Counted from the stretch's first letter, positions 4,348 to 34,010 are shown. The stretch is DNA of 55,161 bases from a virus (IMGVR_UViG_3300025120_000065:1-55161); one strand, 5' to 3'. Numbers and translations: made by a program. Notes: generated by a model not told the origin, from the sequence alone.

Positions 4348-5571
4348 ATGGAATTATCATTGATACGTAGTCTGATGGACAAAGACTTTTATGACGAGCA
4401 TCGTGGTGCACGTTGTCCTGACAGACTATTCAGTAAAGATGTACGTAAGATCAAGCAGTCTATTGACACTGCTATGGATCGCTATGAGCGTACAGTTACA
4501 CCAGCAGAGATTGAGGCATTGTTTATGGCGAACAACCCCACTCTCACAACTGCACAGAAGACTGCCTACAGCCACCTGTTTGGGCAGGTAAGCAAGGAGC
4601 AGCCAATGGGCAGTGACGTAGCACAAGAGGTGCTATCTAAGCTGTTTCAACAGGTGATTGGTGAGGACATTGCCAACCTTGGCTTTGACTATGTGAATGG
4701 CAGCAAGTCTACACTGGAGCCATTACGTCAGATGCTTGAGCAGTATGGCGATGACTTCACACCCAACCTACGTATTGATTGGGAAGACATTGACCTTGAT
4801 ACTATCCTTGCTATGACTGACCTTGAATCACAGTGGACATTCAACATACCTACGTTGACACGTAAAGTTGAGGGCATCAACGCTGGTCACTTGATTGAGG
4901 TAGGTGCACGTCCTAACACAGGCAAGACATCCTTCCATGCCTCACTTGTAGCTGGGCCTAATGGCTTTGCATGGCAGGGTGCACGTGTTGTTGTGTTGTG
5001 TAACGAGGAAGGCTATCATCGTGTGGCTCACCGTTACATCACAGCAGCTACAGGAATGGACAAGTTTGAAATCGTCAAGAACAAACAGCAAGCCATGAAC
5101 ACATTCAATCAGATACGTGACAAGATCATGTTCAAGGATGCAACAGGACGTGACATGAACTGGGTTGAGTCTGTGTGCAAGTCATACAAACCTGACGTAG
5201 TTATACTAGACATGGGTGACAAGTTTGCCCGTACTGCTGGCTTCTCACGTCCTGATGAGGCACTCAAGGCTAATGCCATACAAGCTCGACAGATTGCCAA
5301 GCAGCAAGAGTGTGCCATGTTCTACATGTCTCAGCTATCTGCAGAAGCAGAAGGTAAGGTTGTACTCAACCAAGCTATGATGGAAGGTTCACGTACTGGT
5401 AAGGCAGCAGAAGCTGACCTTATGATTATGATTTCTAAGAACCCAACAGTTGAGGGTCAAGAGGAAGAAGACAACCAACGTCACATCAATGTGGTAAAGA
5501 ACAAACTATCTGGGTGGCATGGCATTGTTCACACAGATCTTGAATACAAGATAGCGAGGTATGTATCATGA
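4348..5571 (+). CDS. SF4 (DnaB/T7 gp4-like) replicative helicase
   Basis: Walker A GARPNTGKT, VVILD Walker B, SQL, KNK. Confidence 0.92.
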   Translation: MELSLIRSLMDKDFYDEHRGARCPDRLFSKDVRKIKQSIDTAMDRYERTVTPAEIEALFMANNPTLTTAQKTAYSHLFGQVSKEQPMGSDVAQEVLSKLFQQVIGEDIANLGFDYVNGSKSTLEPLRQMLEQYGDDFTPNLRIDWEDIDLDTILAMTDLESQWTFNIPTLTRKVEGINAGHLIEVGARPNTGKTSFHASLVAGPNGFAWQGARVVVLCNEEGYHRVAHRYITAATGMDKFEIVKNKQQAMNTFNQIRDKIMFKDATGRDMNWVESVCKSYKPDVVILDMGDKFARTAGFSRPDEALKANAIQARQIAKQQECAMFYMSQLSAEAEGKVVLNQAMMEGSRTGKAAEADLMIMISKNPTVEGQEEEDNQRHINVVKNKLSGWHGIVHTDLEYKIARYVS

Positions 5572-25795: not shown

Positions 25796-26604
25796 TTTTT
25801 ATTCTCCAAACGTAACATGTATTCTGTGTTAGCAAAGTCAGCTTTACCAAATATACGTTCTGCTGTTACATCCACATTAACACAGTACTTATCTGCCATT
25901 TGATCTAAGAACTCTTCTAGATCATTAGAGTGAGGTATGTCTTGTTTTTGTATACGTTCAGCAGTATGCGTAACATAACCACTTACCTCTGTTAGACTTA
26001 CTTGTGGATGTACACCGTATTGTTGTAAATATTCTATTGTAGCTGTCTGTGCTCTACCACCATCAAGTAAGTTGCGATACATAAGCTCAAAACCACGACG
26101 AACATGATGACGTTTTTCTTCAGCTTCAAATGTTTCCTCATCCCACTCATCAATGTTGTTTGTTTCTTTTATATTTTCATAGGCATCTATTAATGTTGCA
26201 ATGTCTTTAAACGCACCATTAATTTTAGACTCTAGTCTTTCCAGATTAAATCTTTTTTGTCTTAACTCTGCTTGTGCAACCATATCAATGTCACCCTCAA
26301 GCTGATCTATTTCTTTTAAACATTTAGCATGGCTTACTTGGGCCTCTGCTAGTGCAGACTTACGTTTGTCAATCTCTGCAGTAACTTGACGTAGCATACG
26401 CATAGGAGACTGACCGTTTAACATAGTTAAAGTCATAAGAGATATTGTATGTTGACTGTTTTGCCTATCAAAGGCACGAGTCTTTTCGTCTATTTCTGGT
26501 AAGAACTGATTTACTTTTGCTACAGCAGCAGTATTTATTTTGTCTGCTGCTACTGCTGGTAAACTAAATGTCCATTCTTCTGTGGTTGTTAATTCTTTTT
26601 TCAT
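25792..26604 (-). CDS. Coiled-coil protein directly after the propeller array
   Basis: AAGGA RBS before MKKELT; long heptad region. Confidence 0.8.
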   Translation of the reverse strand: MKKELTTTEEWTFSLPAVAADKINTAAVAKVNQFLPEIDEKTRAFDRQNSQHTISLMTLTMLNGQSPMRMLRQVTAEIDKRKSALAEAQVSHAKCLKEIDQLEGDIDMVAQAELRQKRFNLERLESKINGAFKDIATLIDAYENIKETNNIDEWDEETFEAEEKRHHVRRGFELMYRNLLDGGRAQTATIEYLQQYGVHPQVSLTEVSGYVTHTAERIQKQDIPHSNDLEEFLDQMADKYCVNVDVTAERIFGKADFANTEYMLRLENKK

Positions 26605-26617
26605 TGTTAGTTTCCTT

Positions 26618-27577
26618 TTATGTTCCTGCTGCTCCACCTGCGGCTCTGTAAACCCCCCGTGTTAAATCTCCAAAGTCGACAGCGTTACCAGAAGATGCAG
26701 CTATTGTTAAGTATTGAATTACATTTGAAGGACCACTTGCTGAAGCATCCCCACCTGCAACTATCCCTCTACTTGCATCTCCTCCTCCTCCACCTATATC
26801 CTTGTTATGAGTGTTCAGATCACCTATGTCAGTACCATTTCCATTAGTCGCAATAGTAATTCTTTCTATTCTAGATTCACTACCTTGATTTAGCCCCGCA
26901 CAAAAAACACCATACGTTGTATCTGAAATATTACTAGTAGCGTCTGTAAAGTAGTAAGACAAAGCTCCATAGTCTGTAGCATTACCCGCTGTAGCAACAA
27001 TAATTTTTTCTGTTCTGTACAAATCGTCGCCAATCGTAGTAAAAACCCCTATTGTACCGTCACAAACACCAGCACTACCGTCTGCACTATTTTGTGTTAA
27101 GTCACCAAAATCTGTTGCATTACCTGTAGTAGATATAGTAATATAGTCCATTACATTACTATTACCGCCTTCACCACCCGCAAATACACCACGAGTTCCA
27201 TTAGATAAAGAACCCATGCGTCTTCTAGCAACACTCATGTTTCCAAAGTCCGTAGCATTACCAGTAGTACCTATTGTTATATAATCAATAACATCTTGAT
27301 TACTTCCTGTGTAGCCTCCCCCAAAAACTCCTCTACTCCCGTTTGAAGTACCTGCACCTAAATATCTACCAACAGTCAAATCACCGAAGTCTGTAGCATT
27401 ACCTGTTGTTTGTATTGTTACATAGTCCATAACATTTACAGTACTTGCTCCACCTGCGTGTACATATCTAGCACCGTACCATTTAGGAGTATTGTCACCA
27501 CCAACGGCTACACCACCAACAGTTATAACACCGTCATTGCTAATCTCATTTGTTTGATGATTAAATGTTAATGCCAT
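26618..27577 (-). CDS. Six-repeat beta-propeller-like module 4 (intact)
   Basis: MALTFNHQT leader; six RGVFxGG...DY.TI.TTGNATDFGDL-type repeats; ends AGT*. Confidence 0.85.
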   Translation of the reverse strand: MALTFNHQTNEISNDGVITVGGVAVGGDNTPKWYGARYVHAGGASTVNVMDYVTIQTTGNATDFGDLTVGRYLGAGTSNGSRGVFGGGYTGSNQDVIDYITIGTTGNATDFGNMSVARRRMGSLSNGTRGVFAGGEGGNSNVMDYITISTTGNATDFGDLTQNSADGSAGVCDGTIGVFTTIGDDLYRTEKIIVATAGNATDYGALSYYFTDATSNISDTTYGVFCAGLNQGSESRIERITIATNGNGTDIGDLNTHNKDIGGGGGDASRGIVAGGDASASGPSNVIQYLTIAASSGNAVDFGDLTRGVYRAAGGAAGT

Positions 27578-27578
27578 A

Positions 27579-28112
27579 TTATGTTCCTGAACAGCCACCT
27601 GCGCCATACCTACCTTGAGTTAAGTCTCCAAAGTCAGTAGCATTACCAGTATTAGCTATAGTAATATAATCAATTACAGTATCGTATATTGTACTAAATC
27701 CCCCACCAAATACGCCTCTAGTACCATTAGCAGCACCTGCCATTAAAGTCCTAGCTACAGTTAAATCTCCAAAGTCTGTAGAATTACCTGTTGTATCGGT
27801 AGTAATATACTGCATTACATTAATGTACGGGTAATAACCCCCCGCAAAAACACACCTAGTTTCACTAGAAAGACCACCCATAGAGTCTGACGTGACAACC
27901 AAATCACCAAAGTCAGTAGCATTACCTGTAGTATCTATAGTAATATAATCAATTACGTTACTATAATTATCAGCATAGCCACCTGCAAAAACACCCCTAG
28001 TAGTACCCCCTGCACCAGATATACTATACCTAGCTTGAGTTAAGTCTCCAAAGTCAGTAGCATTACCAGTAGTAGATATAGTGACATAATCTAGCGTGTT
28101 TAACTGACCCAT
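27579..28112 (-). CDS. Propeller module 3, C-terminal fragment (rest of blade 3 plus blades 4-6)
   Basis: ATG one codon after an in-frame TAA; GGAGG upstream; ends SGT*. Confidence 0.7.
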   Translation of the reverse strand: MGQLNTLDYVTISTTGNATDFGDLTQARYSISGAGGTTRGVFAGGYADNYSNVIDYITIDTTGNATDFGDLVVTSDSMGGLSSETRCVFAGGYYPYINVMQYITTDTTGNSTDFGDLTVARTLMAGAANGTRGVFGGGFSTIYDTVIDYITIANTGNATDFGDLTQGRYGAGGCSGT

Positions 28113-28115
28113 AAA

Positions 28116-28547
28116 TTAATTGCCTCCACCAAATACACCACGAGTACCATTACTTGCAGAGGCAAGTGTATCTCTACCTACAGTCAAATCACCAAAGTCA
28201 GTAGCATTGCCAGTAGTAGATATGGTAATATAGTCCATAGTATTTACTCTACCTGCACCACTTGCATTCCCACCACCAAATACCCCACGAGTACGGTTAC
28301 TTACGGCAGTAGTGCCATCTCTTCCTTGAGTTAAATTACCAAAATCAGTAGCATTACCTGTTGAAGCTATGGTAATATAATCTATGGTGTCTAATTTACC
28401 ATTATTAAGATTACCTCCACCGAATACACCACGAGAACCGTAGAAAAAAACAGGACTATTATCCCCACCAACGGCTACACCATTAAAAGTCGTAGCCCCT
28501 GTTAAGTTGCTTATATCGTCTGTCTGATAATTAATTGTTAATGCCAT
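28116..28547 (-). CDS. Propeller module 3, N-terminal fragment (leader, blades 1-2, first strand of blade 3)
   Basis: MALTINYQT leader; stops at GGGN*. Confidence 0.75.
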   Translation of the reverse strand: MALTINYQTDDISNLTGATTFNGVAVGGDNSPVFFYGSRGVFGGGNLNNGKLDTIDYITIASTGNATDFGNLTQGRDGTTAVSNRTRGVFGGGNASGAGRVNTMDYITISTTGNATDFGDLTVGRDTLASASNGTRGVFGGGN

Positions 28548-28548
28548 A

Positions 28549-29529
28549 TTATGTTCCTGAAAGACCTGCCATTGCTTTTCTAGCAACAGTTAAATCGCCA
28601 AAGTCTATAGCGTTGCCAGTAGTATCTATAGTCACATAGTCTATTGTATTATACCTAGTTGAACTACTGTAACCCCCTGCAATAGTAGCCCTGACTGCGT
28701 TTGAAGCCGCTGAAGGTTGTTGTCTTGCAACAGTAAGATCACCAAAATCAGTAGCATTACCTGCTGTAGCCATAGTTACATAATCAATTACATTGGAGGG
28801 GCCAGCGCCACCTGCAAATAAAGCCCTGACTGTACTGCCTGTAGAATACCTGTCCTGAATAGTAACGGTCATGTCACCAAAGTCAGTTGAATTACCTTCT
28901 GTTTGTATACTTAAATATTCTATAGTATTAACTATAGCAAAACTAGGAGCAGATATAATCCCAAGATGAAAAACTGCCCTATCTCCATTAGACCAGCCCT
29001 GTGGCGGTTTAGCAGCAGGTACTGTGCCACTGTAAGATGTAGCATTCCCTGTTGTTGCTATTGTAATTTTTTCTACATTTGTTATACCCTGATTTGAACT
29101 ATTTGTTCCTGCTATTATAATACCTTTAACTCCATCAGATGCACTCGCTGGACTTTGCCTACCTGTAGTAAGGTCTCCAAAATCTACAGCATTCGCTAGA
29201 GTAGCTACAGTAAAATAATCTATATCAGTTGTGTAGTTATACCCACCCCCAACTACCCCACGAGAGCCATCTGAAATTCCAAACGGCGATCTTCCTCTTT
29301 CAGCTACAAGATTGCCAAAGTCGGTGGCATTGCCTGTTGAAGCTATGGTTATGTAATCTATAACATTGGAAAAACCACTTCCAACAGCATCATACCCACC
29401 AGCAAATACACCTCTTGAACCATACCAAAAACGGGGCGTATTATCACCACCAACGGCTACGCCATTAACAAGGATAGTACCAGTAGCATTGCTAATGTCG
29501 TTAGTCTGATGGTTTATGGTGAGAGCCAT
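28549..29529 (-). CDS. Six-repeat beta-propeller-like module 2 (intact)
   Basis: MALTINHQT leader; six repeats; ends SGT*. Confidence 0.85.
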   Translation of the reverse strand: MALTINHQTNDISNATGTILVNGVAVGGDNTPRFWYGSRGVFAGGYDAVGSGFSNVIDYITIASTGNATDFGNLVAERGRSPFGISDGSRGVVGGGYNYTTDIDYFTVATLANAVDFGDLTTGRQSPASASDGVKGIIIAGTNSSNQGITNVEKITIATTGNATSYSGTVPAAKPPQGWSNGDRAVFHLGIISAPSFAIVNTIEYLSIQTEGNSTDFGDMTVTIQDRYSTGSTVRALFAGGAGPSNVIDYVTMATAGNATDFGDLTVARQQPSAASNAVRATIAGGYSSSTRYNTIDYVTIDTTGNAIDFGDLTVARKAMAGLSGT

Positions 29530-29541
29530 TATGTTTTCCTA

Positions 29542-29802
29542 CTATGTTCCTGAAAGTCCACCGCTACCCTGTCTACCTACACTTAAATTACCAAAGTCAG
29601 TAGCGTTACCTGTAGTATCAATAGTTACATAGTCTATAGTGTCCTCAGTAGCTGACGAAGAACTATGCCCCCCACCAAAAGTGGCTCTAGTTCCATTTGA
29701 TGCTGCTGCTGGAACACTTCTAGCAACAGTTAAGTTCCCAAAGTCCGTAGCATTACCCGCTGATGCCATTGTTACATAGTCTATTACATCTGATTTTGGC
29801 AT
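29542..29802 (-). CDS. Propeller module 1, C-terminal fragment (rest of blade 5 plus blade 6)
   Basis: TAATG overlap with the fibre gene; AGGAGG upstream; ends SGT*. Confidence 0.7.
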   Translation of the reverse strand: MPKSDVIDYVTMASAGNATDFGNLTVARSVPAAASNGTRATFGGGHSSSSATEDTIDYVTIDTTGNATDFGNLSVGRQGSGGLSGT

Positions 29803-32800
29803 TATGTATCTCCTCCTACAACTAACATTCTAGTAGCGCTTCCTGTTGCACTGTGATTATTTCTAGCAACAGTTAAATCTCCAAAATCTGTAGCATTACC
29901 TTCTGTTTCAATACTTAAAAATTCCACTGTATTAACCTTAGCTGAACCTGAGTAACCAATCGCAAAAACAGCCCTATCTCCATTTGACCACCCAGTACAA
30001 CTTTGTGCAGAACCTGTCGTGCCACTATATAATGTGGCATTACCTGTTGTAGCTATAGTAAGTTTATCTACATCAGTTCGGGCTGCAATTGCAGAAGAGT
30101 TACCAGCTATTATTAATCCCTTTACACCATTACTAGCACCAGCCGATTGCATCCTACCCACAGTTAAATCACCAAAGTCTATAGCATTTCCTGTGCTTGC
30201 TACAGTTATATAGTCAATTGTGTTTACTGCAGAAGATGTCCTACCCCCTGCAAAAACACCTCGTGTGCCATTTGACATTGAAGCAGGAGATTGATTTCTA
30301 GCCACAGTTAAGTCACCAAAGTCTGTGGCATTGCCTGTTGAAGATATAGTAATGTAATCTATAACATTACTATTACCACCACTGTCATAACCCCCAGCAA
30401 ATACCCCTCTAGTTCCATACCAAACATAAGTTTCATAATCTAATTCGGATGTGTTTATAGTACCTACCCATCTTACATCGTGAGATGCTGCACCAGTTAT
30501 TTCAACTTTAAGCCCTCCATTTGTAGTGTCAGCAGTTAAAGAAACATCCCAATTAGGTGCATTATAATATGTGTTAACTACTTCTGTTAAAAGTGTAGTT
30601 GTGTTAGCTGCACCCTCTCTACGAATAAGACCTTCTATTTTCCACCCAGCACAATCTGTACCATCATCACCCTCTTGTCTTGCAACAATAGTGCCATGAA
30701 AAGTCATTGCAGAATCATTTTTAAGTATAATTTGATTGTCTGTAGAGGCTGAACTATTATTAGTAGTCATTACAGTAGCTGTAGCATCTGTAGTGTCAGC
30801 AACTAAAACGTATAATCCTTGTTGAGCTTGACCTGCTAAACCTGCAAAACTAAATGTACTGTAAGCAAGTTTTCCTATAACATCTGATTTAGCCTTTGAT
30901 CCTATTGCAGTAGAATCTGTAGCATTAGATGCCCCTTCAGAAGCACCAAAAAATGTTGTTGCAGAAGCGTCTGCGAAAGCTAAATTTCCCGATCCATCAG
31001 TTTTAAGAAACTGTCCACTAGAACCATCGGCTGATGGTAGAGTAAACGTTATATCACTTGTAGATTCTGGGCCAGCAAGTGTAACTGCATTACTTCCATT
31101 TGAGCTATTTTCAAGAAACTTAATAGAACCTGCACTATTACTTGCATTACTTACCTGTAGTCTGCCTATTACATTAATACCTCCACTTTCTGTGGTAAGT
31201 TTTTGGTTTCCATTATGGAGTAGCTCAACCTGAGATGAACTTAAATTTAATAGGCTAGTGCCAGAGGCGTTATCAAATTGTATCTCTTGACCTTGTATTA
31301 CTAAATGGCTTGATCCACTTTCTGTAATATGAGATTTGTTAGTAGAAGAGTCATGGTAAATTTGAAGATCATTACCTGCACCAAATCTGACCCTAATATC
31401 ATCATTAAAATCAACGCCTGTTGAGCCACCAATACTTGCTGGTACAGCAGCAAATGCTAAGTTTCCCGATCCATCAGTTTTAAGAAACTGTCCACTTGAG
31501 CCATCTGCTGCAGGGAGAACAAAAGACAAGTTGCCACTATATGCACTATGTGCTGCAGACTTTAACTCAGTGTAATGTGCATTGCTTGACTCACAGTAGA
31601 ACCGTATAGCTGCAACACTACCTGTACCTGTACGTATATCTATACGTCCATCTTGAAGTGTGACACCGCCACTAGAACCATCACCACCAAAAGTAGCACT
31701 ACTACTATTACTTAGTGCAACTGTACCTGTAGCATTAGGGAATGTAATAGTACGATCTGCACTTGGGTTAGTAAAGGCTACAGTAGTTTCATTACCATCT
31801 GCACTAGAACCTTCTACAGTAAAGCCTGAGTCACTTAGATACAAACCAGATACAGTTGGGCTTGTCAGTGTCTTGTTAGTAAGTGTTTTAGTTGTACTTG
31901 AGAAGTATGTATCAAGTAAGTCTACATCACGATAACCTATTTCGTTACCATTGTCAAACATAAGTATAGCATCATTGTTAGCTATTGCAGTACTTGTGTC
32001 TACACTTACAGCAGAAAAGTCAGCTACTGTGTTTAGCTCTGCACCTGTAGCATTAAGACCTGTTACGTTGTTAGATGTACTAGCTACAGTATCTACATAG
32101 GCTTTTACCGACTGTTGTGTTGGAATAAGTGTAGCACTGTTAGATGACATGTTATCTTCATCTACAAATGCTGTAATAGTTATGCTACCATCAGTTAAAT
32201 TTCCATAAGATACAGTACCACCAGTTATAGTGCCTGTGGTTGTAATAGCACTTGAACCATTATCAATAGCACCAAAACCACTTGTAATACTACCGCTATT
32301 AAGAGCACCTACCGTTGTAGCAGCAGTAGTTACAAGGTTAGGCATAGCTGTAATTTCATCGTCAAAGTATGCTGCTAAATCCGTTACTGCAACTTGTACC
32401 ATTGTACCGTTGTCATTCATAATAACACGATCACCATCAGCTACAGTTGTCGAAGTTGCGGATGTATTACCATCTATAATGTTTAATTCAGCAGGTGTAG
32501 CTGTAATGGCTGTGTTACTTGCTGCAGCTAATACAGGAACTGTGCCTGATTGGTTAGGCAAACTAATTGTACGATCTGCAGTAGGATCAACTATAGTAAG
32601 TGTAGTTTCGTTATTATCTGCTGTAGCACCTTCAAATACTATAGCATTTTGTGCGTTAATAGTTACAGTATCTACAACTGTCTGTGTACCTGATACAGTT
32701 AAATTACCCGAAACTATAAGGTCTTGTGATACAGTTACATTACCACCAGAAGCAATAGCAATAGCATCAGTATCACTAGCAGAGCCTATGTTACCACCAT

Positions 32801-34010
32801 CACTGATAATTATATTACCACCAGTAATATTTCCTGTAGTTGTAATAGTGCTAGAGCCAGTATCAATTGAACCAAAACCAGATGTAATAGAACCTGAGTT
32901 TAAAGCACCAACAGCAGTCACACTACTAAGAATACCTAGATTACCCCCTAAATAAGTAGTTAGATCAGGCAAGGCTACTTGTTTCATTGTACCATTGTCA
33001 TTTACTACAAATCGGTCTGCATCTGCAAGAGTAGTAGATGTTGCAGATGTATTACCATCTATTGTATTTAATTCTGCTGCAGTAGCTGTAACTGCCGTAC
33101 CATTTATAGAAAGCGCATCAGTTTCTAAAGTACCGTCAACATCTACATCACCTGATATATCTAGAGTAGCGGCATCAAGCTCACCAGTAATTGTTATATT
33201 TCTTGCACCTGTAAAATCTTTATTACTATCTACAACTATAGCTTTAGAAGCAGCAACAGTTCCTGCTGTTAAATCATCTATAGTTTCTAAGTCAGCTTCA
33301 TTAATATTTGCAGATCCAATTACAAAACTTGTACCTGTAATTGTTGTACCCGTTATAGCAGCAGCACTAGCCCCACCAATAACAGCACCATCAACTGTAC
33401 CACCATTGATGTCTGCAGTATCTGCTACGAGGGCGTCAATGTTAGCTGTACCGTCAATGTACAAATTACGCCACTCAGAGCCTACAGCACCTAAGTCATG
33501 TGTATCATCAGCAGAAGGTAGTAGTGGAGAAGCAACATCAGCAGTAACTGTTACAGTATCACTAGCAGCATTACCAAGTGTAGTATTACCATTTACTGTA
33601 AGATTACCTGTAACAACAGCATTAGCATCTACTTGCAGTGCATCTACTGTAGCTGTACCATCAATAAATAAATCTTTAAACTGTAAACTAGATGTACCAA
33701 GATCAATGTCGTTGTTAGTGACAGGAACAACTGCACCATCTTGAATACGTATTTGCTCTACAGCAGCACTAGATACTTCTACAAATACACCAACACGATT
33801 GTTTGATGTATCAATAGCTACTTTGTTTAAAGCATCTGAGTCTGCAATCAGTGGTACATATGCACCCTCTGCTGCAGTACCATCGTGCTTGTGTCCTGTG
33901 CTTGCGTTAAATGCATCTCGTAATGCATTATACTCTACGTTCAGCGGGTTAGCACGAACAACAGCCGTTGCAATAATATCTGCTGAAGATTGTCTTGTAT
34001 ATCCTGCCAC
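29802..34010 (-). CDS. Tail fibre with C-terminal propeller blades 1-4
   Basis: MAGYTRQS/GHKHDG anchor-type N-terminus; G/T/S/A-rich beta repeats; follows the tail genes. Confidence 0.85.
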   Translation of the reverse strand: MAGYTRQSSADIIATAVVRANPLNVEYNALRDAFNASTGHKHDGTAAEGAYVPLIADSDALNKVAIDTSNNRVGVFVEVSSAAVEQIRIQDGAVVPVTNNDIDLGTSSLQFKDLFIDGTATVDALQVDANAVVTGNLTVNGNTTLGNAASDTVTVTADVASPLLPSADDTHDLGAVGSEWRNLYIDGTANIDALVADTADINGGTVDGAVIGGASAAAITGTTITGTSFVIGSANINEADLETIDDLTAGTVAASKAIVVDSNKDFTGARNITITGELDAATLDISGDVDVDGTLETDALSINGTAVTATAAELNTIDGNTSATSTTLADADRFVVNDNGTMKQVALPDLTTYLGGNLGILSSVTAVGALNSGSITSGFGSIDTGSSTITTTGNITGGNIIISDGGNIGSASDTDAIAIASGGNVTVSQDLIVSGNLTVSGTQTVVDTVTINAQNAIVFEGATADNNETTLTIVDPTADRTISLPNQSGTVPVLAAASNTAITATPAELNIIDGNTSATSTTVADGDRVIMNDNGTMVQVAVTDLAAYFDDEITAMPNLVTTAATTVGALNSGSITSGFGAIDNGSSAITTTGTITGGTVSYGNLTDGSITITAFVDEDNMSSNSATLIPTQQSVKAYVDTVASTSNNVTGLNATGAELNTVADFSAVSVDTSTAIANNDAILMFDNGNEIGYRDVDLLDTYFSSTTKTLTNKTLTSPTVSGLYLSDSGFTVEGSSADGNETTVAFTNPSADRTITFPNATGTVALSNSSSATFGGDGSSGGVTLQDGRIDIRTGTGSVAAIRFYCESSNAHYTELKSAAHSAYSGNLSFVLPAADGSSGQFLKTDGSGNLAFAAVPASIGGSTGVDFNDDIRVRFGAGNDLQIYHDSSTNKSHITESGSSHLVIQGQEIQFDNASGTSLLNLSSSQVELLHNGNQKLTTESGGINVIGRLQVSNASNSAGSIKFLENSSNGSNAVTLAGPESTSDITFTLPSADGSSGQFLKTDGSGNLAFADASATTFFGASEGASNATDSTAIGSKAKSDVIGKLAYSTFSFAGLAGQAQQGLYVLVADTTDATATVMTTNNSSASTDNQIILKNDSAMTFHGTIVARQEGDDGTDCAGWKIEGLIRREGAANTTTLLTEVVNTYYNAPNWDVSLTADTTNGGLKVEITGAASHDVRWVGTINTSELDYETYVWYGTRGVFAGGYDSGGNSNVIDYITISSTGNATDFGDLTVARNQSPASMSNGTRGVFAGGRTSSAVNTIDYITVASTGNAIDFGDLTVGRMQSAGASNGVKGLIIAGNSSAIAARTDVDKLTIATTGNATLYSGTTGSAQSCTGWSNGDRAVFAIGYSGSAKVNTVEFLSIETEGNATDFGDLTVARNNHSATGSATRMLVVGGDT
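30985..31496 (-). repeat. 35-bp exact repeat in the fibre gene (30985-31019, 31462-31496)
   Basis: Lies within the twice-repeated peptide ADGSSGQFLKTDGSGNLAFA. Confidence 0.85.

Follow-up and report, generated by a model that had tools for sequence, protein, structure and literature searches.

Kelch propellers such as KEAP1, KLHL12 and the designed SAKe6 are the closest described counterparts of the proteins treated here, being alike in the predicted fold, in repeats of about 45-51 amino acids (aa), in a Gly-Gly doublet and in the closure of the ring by both ends of the chain. The proteins in question are encoded in a complete viral genome, IMGVR_UViG_3300025120_000065:1-55161 (hereafter the window, that is, the whole stretch of 55,161 nucleotides (nt) that was analysed), which carries four propeller modules (M1 to M4) at and beside its tail fibre gene. 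Two of the four, M1 and M3, are each broken into two adjacent open reading frames (ORFs). On the other hand, the phage family differs from Kelch propellers in that it gives no Pfam Kelch match, has a repeat signature of its own, stands in a tail-fibre setting and has some members made from two genes. We consider it probable that these two-gene members are heritable, translationally coupled gene fissions at the second codon past the Gly-Gly doublet (GG+2), which give propellers composed of two chains.

Chains smaller than a propeller that make up whole rings are found in trimeric two-blade lectins such as RSL and in tachylectin-2, NHL/Pizza and WRAP, and the same principle would let the phage halves assemble. 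All of these are homo-oligomers and mostly engineered, whereas the phage proteins are predicted to be natural complementary heterodimers, which have arisen repeatedly. In PMC6805158, tachylectin-2, NHL/Pizza and the WD40 fragments WRAP are described as forming oligomeric propellers, propellers are said to be almost always single-chain, and complementary WD40 fragments could not form hetero-oligomers. Propellers closed in trans are also described (PMC3115789): Nup145C or Sec31 provides Sec13 with its seventh blade, and Seh1 pairs with Nup85. As in the phage case, strands of two separately encoded polypeptides make one closed propeller. In these eukaryotic coats, the open six-blade protein receives a single blade from a partner that is not related to it, whereas in the phage one ancestral gene appears to be cut into adjacent coupled ORFs in proportions from 1+5 to 4+2, with one blade probably shared as two plus two strands.

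Translational coupling at overlapping stop and start codons (TAATG, ATGA) is common to phage and bacterial operons, and the phage splits resemble it in the stop/start overlap with a Shine-Dalgarno motif inside the upstream coding sequence. They differ from it in that the junction interrupts a sequence that elsewhere forms a single domain and that the Shine-Dalgarno motif is supplied by conserved Gly-Gly codons. In open-access full text and bioRxiv we found no report of split phage propeller genes, and none of Kelch-type repeats with a stereotyped site of fission.

The fixed position of the split became evident from a census of relatives. A blade hidden Markov model of 47 positions, made from the 24 repeats of the window, was used to scan all stop-to-stop frames of 390 sources, namely the window and 389 related loci obtained from four IMG/VR protein scans, one IMG/VR DNA-pattern scan and one metagenome scan; start codons were not used for detection. 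Among 501 distinct uncut ORFs with blade hits, 359 had six blades, 88 about twelve and 3 eighteen, while 13 gave partial hits only and 38 had other counts. Most of the odd counts (27/38) belonged to 14 split junctions, which comprise 13 complete pairs and one locus (L341) whose N fragment runs off the contig. At all 14 junctions the stop codon stands exactly two codons past the Gly-Gly doublet, and a start codon overlaps the stop or follows it by no more than 3 nt (TAATG in 11, and TAGTG, TAA T ATG and TAA TTT ATG in one each). Because each C fragment resembles an intact propeller more closely than it does any other split one, save for the M1 trio and the L096/L168 pair, the 14 junctions represent 11 independent events. 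The loop in which they lie has a mean of 7.6 residues, roughly a sixth of the repeat of about 47 residues, and chance cannot have placed 11 events at one codon. Enrichment of breaks in this loop, followed by ATG, had been named in a preliminary description of the window as something to look for in relatives, and it was found, with the start codon immediate in all 11 events.

The remaining 11 odd-count ORFs were of other kinds: a degenerate ORF of six blades (L062), three short ones whose ends are canonical and which have three, two or one repeats (L106, L318 and L293, respectively), two ORFs of L361, a truncation (L380), a low-quality sequence with Ns (L390) and spurious short hits (L356, L359 and L366). 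In L361 (3287-5404, plus strand) a 12-repeat gene is interrupted by a frameshift within a blade (...TVARTEWS stop) with no nearby start codon and with Ns on the contig; this break is probably an error or decay, unlike the loop splits. Its detection means that the scan was able to see within-blade breaks. Such broken propellers without restart, to which L380 and P0036 with its frameshifted tail can be added, lend some substance to the view that one or both split modules of the window are decaying, with a non-functional downstream ORF or module and incidental start codons. Decay would, however, scatter the breaks, yet all complementary junctions fall at one codon position with an immediate start.

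The two breaks in the window follow the pattern of the relatives. The fibre gene, whose C-terminus is the first part of M1 (M1a), ends in ...GTA GGA GGA GAT ACA TAA, and the A at 29802 of this stop is also the first base of the ATG of the second part (M1b). The two parts of M3 (M3a and M3b) are in the same frame across a single TAA, which is followed by TTT ATG. Both cuts lie in the loop between the Gly-Gly doublet and the IDY strand, and the fragments of each module sum to six repeats, as 4+2 in M1 and 2+4 in M3. In all these respects, including the frame change at the TAATG of M1, the preliminary description had read the sequence correctly. It had also remarked that Met occurs only in the broken loops. 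Indeed, Met was absent from the 22 intact loops of the window, though it occupies the first strand position after the loop (MDY/MQY) in four blades. In the relatives, Met was present in only 18 of 1506 non-redundant intact loops (18 of 11,493 loop residues), and intact homologues therefore do not already carry Met at the site.

The third feature of the split site is a Shine-Dalgarno-like motif provided by the Gly codons, which had been suggested from the two breaks of the window and now has statistical support. GGAGG or GGGGG occurs at 765 of 2466 intact Gly-Gly sites (31%), versus 9 of the 10 split events that have the doublet (binomial p = 2e-4, with the aligned GGT used, conservatively, for M3), and it lies 9-10 nt ahead of the start. 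Thus, the stop and start overlap or abut and a Shine-Dalgarno-like motif stands 5-13 nt upstream, as is usual for translationally coupled overlapping genes, which supports stop-restart coupling at the split sites, presumably by reinitiation. In the mechanism we propose, the ribosome would terminate two codons past the Gly-Gly doublet and restart at the ATG that overlaps or abuts the stop, and the purine-rich Gly-Gly codons (GGAGG), about 9-10 nt upstream, would act as the Shine-Dalgarno sequence for the restart. As the restart would be helped by GGAGG, both chains would be made together from one mRNA. The chains may then assemble into one closed propeller, in which each chain would give two strands to the cut blade and the closure blade would be common to both. 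The fixed position would result from two joint constraints: a ribosome-binding site that is already in place at a suitable spacing, and a loop able to accommodate free ends.

The downstream frame is -1 at the TAATG junctions, and M3 is in frame across its single TAA. These arrangements would also fit recoding, in which a programmed -1 frameshift at TAATG or read-through of the M3 stop still gives a single-chain propeller. However, the bases before the stop differ from event to event (GAT ACA, TTA GAT, AAC AGC, GAA AAT, ATT GCA, GAG GAT, ACT ACA and GAG GCT), no X XXY YYZ slippery site is present at any junction, and recoding would not need the immediate ATG or GTG that is present in all events. 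Moreover, in the cassettes TAATG and TAA T ATG are the usual links from one complete propeller gene to the next, as in M2/M3a and M3b/M4 of the window and in L135, L138 and L157. Recoding is thus highly improbable to us. Programmed -1 frameshifting as such was rejected, since the junctions have no conserved slippery heptamer. The whole-gene junctions M2/M3a (28540-28560) and M3b/M4 (27570-27590) share an identical 20-nt string, CAGGAACATAATATGGCATT on the coding strand, in which the AGGAA for the next module comes from the C-terminal Ser-Gly-Thr codons of the preceding one. The split junction of M1, GGAGATACATAATG, resembles these natural whole-gene junctions.

The region is highly repetitive and many chimeric joints appeared when contigs were aligned to it, so that an error of sequencing or assembly in this metagenome-assembled genome had to be considered. 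Two runs, X1 and X2, each of which may be the source sample, contain 98% of the words sampled from 27400-30000. The independently assembled Logan contigs of X1 (28042-28762 at depth 215.6 and 28735-29901 at depth 236.5) reproduced both junctions with 0 differences; being contigs, not raw reads, from a run that may be the source, they rule out an assembler artefact, not a minor variant. The M1 junction was also recovered in contigs of other collections (L317 and L397) and in 8 protein clusters from ENA, JGI and Logan. In addition, the junctions are not homopolymers. Error is therefore largely refuted for M1 and unlikely for M3, and as an explanation of the breaks in general it is practically negligible. 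In three other marine runs (X3, X4 and X7) small shares of the stretch were found, as short contigs covering 28525-29509 with 32-48 differences. There, M2 is about 95-97% identical, and the contigs, only about 1-1.3 kb long, stop at the gene borders, which points to different flanking sequences around M2 in other strains.

With regard to the fold, a model of M2, aligned with 65 homologues translated from related loci, had a mean predicted local distance difference test score (pLDDT) of 89.4 and a predicted template modelling score (pTM) of 0.86. Foldseek placed six-bladed Kelch domains (KLHL12 and KEAP1) and the designed SAKe6 at the top of the PDB matches (E about 1e-16), with template modelling scores (TM) of 0.73-0.90 (TMq 0.73-0.78) at 11-16% identity. 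The repeats of this predicted six-bladed ring have the Gly-Gly doublet after a hydrophobic strand, as Kelch repeats do. In contrast, hmmscan of 6 proteins against Pfam, with E up to 1, gave no Kelch model and no meaningful family. Because the fold matches but no Pfam Kelch model does, we call the family Kelch-like by fold only.

Co-folding of M3a with M3b gave an interface score (ipSAE, interaction prediction score from aligned errors) of 0.93 in three of three runs, versus 0.00 for the best of three controls; the mark used is reached by 58 of 80 solved complexes and by 2 of 110 mismatched pairs, each chain being given a 50-row alignment. The runs shared at least 95% of contacts and the partner pLDDT was at least 91. 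The prediction is thus in line with the earlier suggestion that two fragments form one propeller. The lowest-error contacts joined residues 136-139 of M3a (RGVF) to residues 7-12 of M3b (LDYVTI) in antiparallel register, and the cut is therefore predicted to fall within one four-stranded blade, between its second and third strands. Placement of the break between blades was not upheld and is refined accordingly by the model. The N-terminal strand of M3a also contacted the C-terminal strand of M3b. The two chains would thus share two blades, the cut blade and the closure blade.

Several split forms have been retained through divergence. M1b-like ORFs of 85-86 aa, 86-91% identical to M1b, were found in the 8 protein clusters (each at 90% identity) mentioned above, and in all of them the start reads M[PA]KS[DN]VIDY. 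In the alignment of the nine sequences 61 of 86 columns are invariant, and the main variable stretch is the inter-repeat loop (positions 46-54). At the DNA level, L317 (the one close M1 relative among the matches listed in the metagenome GNATDF scan) and L397 (from a degenerate DNA pattern) have the same GGDT TAATG, the N fragment there being 285 aa long and carrying an adaptor of its own in place of the 1402-aa fibre, and P0251 presents a third N-terminal context for the M1-type propeller. For the M1 type, the ratio of non-synonymous to synonymous substitution rates (dN/dS) was 0.33-0.50 in both halves and dS was equal between them (0.18 and 0.16-0.18). The L063 type is represented by 5 further clusters, 67-94% identical to the L063 N fragment, which have several adaptor variants and all end in TRALFAGGLD. 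L096 and L168, from different samples, have in common only a segment of 842 nt at 96.4% identity, which is the split propeller, and their flanks and adaptors are unrelated. Between them, dN/dS was 0.27 for the N fragment and 0.74 for the C fragment, with few changes, and dS was 0.057 and 0.059 for the two halves.

Comparison of adaptors (L096 with L168; window 29805-30416 with L397 and P0251; and A5) revealed the same propeller, split included, behind unrelated N-terminal parts: the long fibre, an adaptor of about 80 aa with TEYH..WW, and an adaptor of about 35 aa with MALTINHQT. Modules therefore appear to recombine at the adaptor/propeller boundary. The patterns of L096, M1 and L063 together mean that split modules move and diverge as units, with the cut retained. 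In L317 (about 5000-5257, plus strand), a 20-codon remnant of a MALEFNHQT adaptor that ends in a stop lies between the M1b-like ORF and the next module and looks like debris of module exchange.

Judged from these sequences, fission is recurrent and stereotyped in the propeller family, and some split forms persist through divergence and module shuffling. For M3, the persistence argument may be made by analogy with the other split types. The claim in the preliminary description that the splits are selected, not decay or error, is therefore upheld in part: they are real, non-random and kept for the M1, L063 and L096 types, while M3 follows by analogy. Decay would gain from the facts that the M3 split is known from this genome only and that the intact paralogues M2 and M4 might cover a loss. 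However, M1b is intact in nine diverged sequences in which variation is concentrated in the loop and dN/dS is below 1, and L063-type fragments are intact down to 67% identity, so we hold decay to be very unlikely.

Several points weigh against coupled fission. No close relative of the M3 split was detected: the best identity was 63% in IMG/VR, and 59% and 68% among the 120 proteins listed in each of the M3b and M3a searches, where the absence is weak because the lists are score-ranked, favour longer proteins and do not include the window's own M3a and M3b. The M3 split may therefore be young, and selection may not yet have acted on it. The contigs of X3, X4 and X7 cover M2 only and are silent on the breaks. 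The dN/dS values rest on few changes (12.5 non-synonymous and 5.5 synonymous in the C fragment of L096/L168). The samples obtained with C-fragment queries are enriched for splits, so that frequencies are biased upward and only position statistics are usable from them. Finally, the co-fold may echo a model memory of single-chain Kelch propellers, and its calibration is rough because of our own alignments. Taking these points into account, we still regard coupled fission at GG+2 as the probable origin of the two-chain members.

We regard the split as a tolerated or near-neutral change rather than a demonstrated adaptation. An adaptive fission would mean that free chain ends on the long-loop face alter or diversify receptor binding, or that half-propellers can be exchanged. 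The position of the cut in the variable loop after the Gly-Gly doublet would suit this explanation, since the equivalent loop helps to form the ligand-binding face of KEAP1-type Kelch domains, and so would the 11 independent events, the splitting of two of four modules in one genome and the long life of some split forms. On the other hand, split forms are rare (about 1% of propellers, with 6 split versus about 397 intact, in the less biased sample, from before the metagenome and pattern scans, which includes two C-fragment-query scans), the halves are co-inherited with equal dS in both the M1 type and L096/L168, shuffling occurs at the adaptor boundary and not at the split with no sign of mix-and-match, and the needs of restart alone account for the fixed GG+2 position. 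Adaptive fission is thus quite unlikely, and the route to diversification of a receptor-binding surface that had been put forward earlier was not supported. That recurrent GG+2 fission is favoured by selection, with the chain architecture tuned by phages for host recognition, seems rather doubtful to us. If so, the split might help the tip to fold on a long trimeric fibre or put free termini in the receptor-binding face, and the family would display propeller evolution in progress, with three, two or one propellers per chain, or one over two coupled chains, possibly together with homo-oligomeric rings from the two- and three-repeat ORFs on trimeric fibres (L318 and L106).

The genomic context is summarized in Table 1 together with the split junctions of the relatives. 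CheckV rates the window, which is the whole IMG/VR virus record, 100% complete, and in the capsid protein it shares 82% identity with Puniceispirillum phage HMO-2011 and 80% with Roseobacter phage CRP-345; the complete genome is that of an HMO-2011-type marine podovirus. Upstream of the fibre on the minus strand are genes for terminase, portal, capsid and tail-tubular-like proteins. The four propellers are paralogous and six-repeat, one fused to the fibre C-terminus and the others in free-standing genes with a short N-terminal adaptor. They occupy the distal end of the fibre gene, after the tail-tubular-like genes, and the adjoining cassette, as expected for a fibre tip, and from this gene position they are putative phage receptor-binding (tail fibre tip) proteins. 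All modules have the signature IDYITI..GNATDFGDL..TRGVFxGG, and most of the 24 repeats (six per module) carry (V/I)FxGG. Among the cultured phages of the collection searched, neither megablast of 26000-31000 nor tblastn of M2 (E limit 1e-5) gave a match, and for M3b the sole result was a weak one to Synechococcus phage S-SKS1. So far, metagenomes alone have yielded the fibre tip of this HMO-2011-type lineage. PHROGs matches were limited to families of unknown function (19111 and 26444).

Table 1. Propeller genes and junctions of the window, and split junctions of related loci (residues before the stop, then the stop/start bases; split given in blades).
Feature	Position	Strand	Description
Fibre ORF	34010..29802	-	1402 aa; propeller at C-terminus
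M1a, C-terminal propeller part of fibre ORF	29805..30416	-	closing strand YGTRGVFAGG and 4 repeats; ends ...MLVVGGDT
M1 Gly-Gly codons GGA GGA	29811..29816	-	GGAGG Shine-Dalgarno-like motif, 9 nt before M1b ATG
M1 junction TAATG	29800..29804	-	fibre stop overlaps M1b start; downstream frame -1
M1b	29802..29542	-	86-aa ORF, MPKSDVIDY...; repeats 5-6 and C-terminal closing strand
M2	29529..28549	-	intact, 326 aa; N-terminal adaptor MALTINHQTNDISN and 6 repeats
M3a	28547..28116	-	143-aa ORF, ATG at 28547; adaptor, closing strand, 2 repeats; ends GVFGGGN TAA
M3 junction GGT GGA GGC AAT TAA TTT ATG	28130..28110	-	GGAGG 28127..28123; stop 28118..28116; ATG 28112..28110
M3b	28112..27579	-	177-aa ORF, MGQLNTLDY...; repeats 3-6
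M4	27577..26618	-	intact 319-aa module, 6 repeats
Split, window M1, L317, L397			GGDT TAATG; 4+2
Split, window M3			GGGN TAA TTT ATG; 2+4
Split, L063			GGLD TAATG; 3+3
Split, L096, L168			GGNS TAATG; 3+3
Split, L230			GGEN TAATG; 2+4
Split, L372			LGIA TAATG; 2+4
Split, L341			GGEA TAATG; 2+4
Split, L374			GGED TAATG; 1+5
Split, L376			GGLQ TAA T ATG; 3+9 of double propeller
Split, L383			GGQG TAGTG (GTG start); 2+4
Split, L393			GGTT TAATG; 1+5

The family spans fused, single and split chain architectures. Two or three propellers per chain (12 or 18 repeats) were observed in L028, L035, L037-L039, L041, L046, L052, L055, L058-L060 and others, and L270 is an intact 12-blade relative of the split double propeller L376. 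The short ORFs L318:6159-6782, L106:3409-3816 and L293:3994-4191 (all plus strand) have an adaptor, an N-terminal closing strand and a canonical C-terminal end, and no complementary fragment adjoins any of the three. They might be what deletions have left, or else chains that build a six-blade ring by trimerizing or dimerizing on a trimeric fibre. Some protein-database entries, P0283 (201 aa), P0039 (223 aa), P0027, P0045, P0113 and P0293, look like further N or C fragments, since they either begin with an M inside the loop or stop just past the Gly-Gly doublet, and are known from protein sequence alone. Of these, P0283 ends three residues past the doublet, a possible exception to the GG+2 rule or a cut gene.

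Finally, propellers are a textbook fold that arises by repeat amplification, and here they are naturally split at least 11 times independently at one codon position. This gives a set of natural, matched split and intact propellers for studies of protein evolution and design, and a rule for the point at which a Kelch-type ring can be opened. Gly-Gly codons that double as a ribosome-binding site would be a case of a coding sequence pre-adapting a site for gene fission. Moreover, small ORFs beside fibre genes, such as the 86-aa one, may be integral parts of the receptor-binding tip, not orphans or pseudogenes, and such tip pieces would otherwise be missed by pipelines for annotation and host-range prediction.

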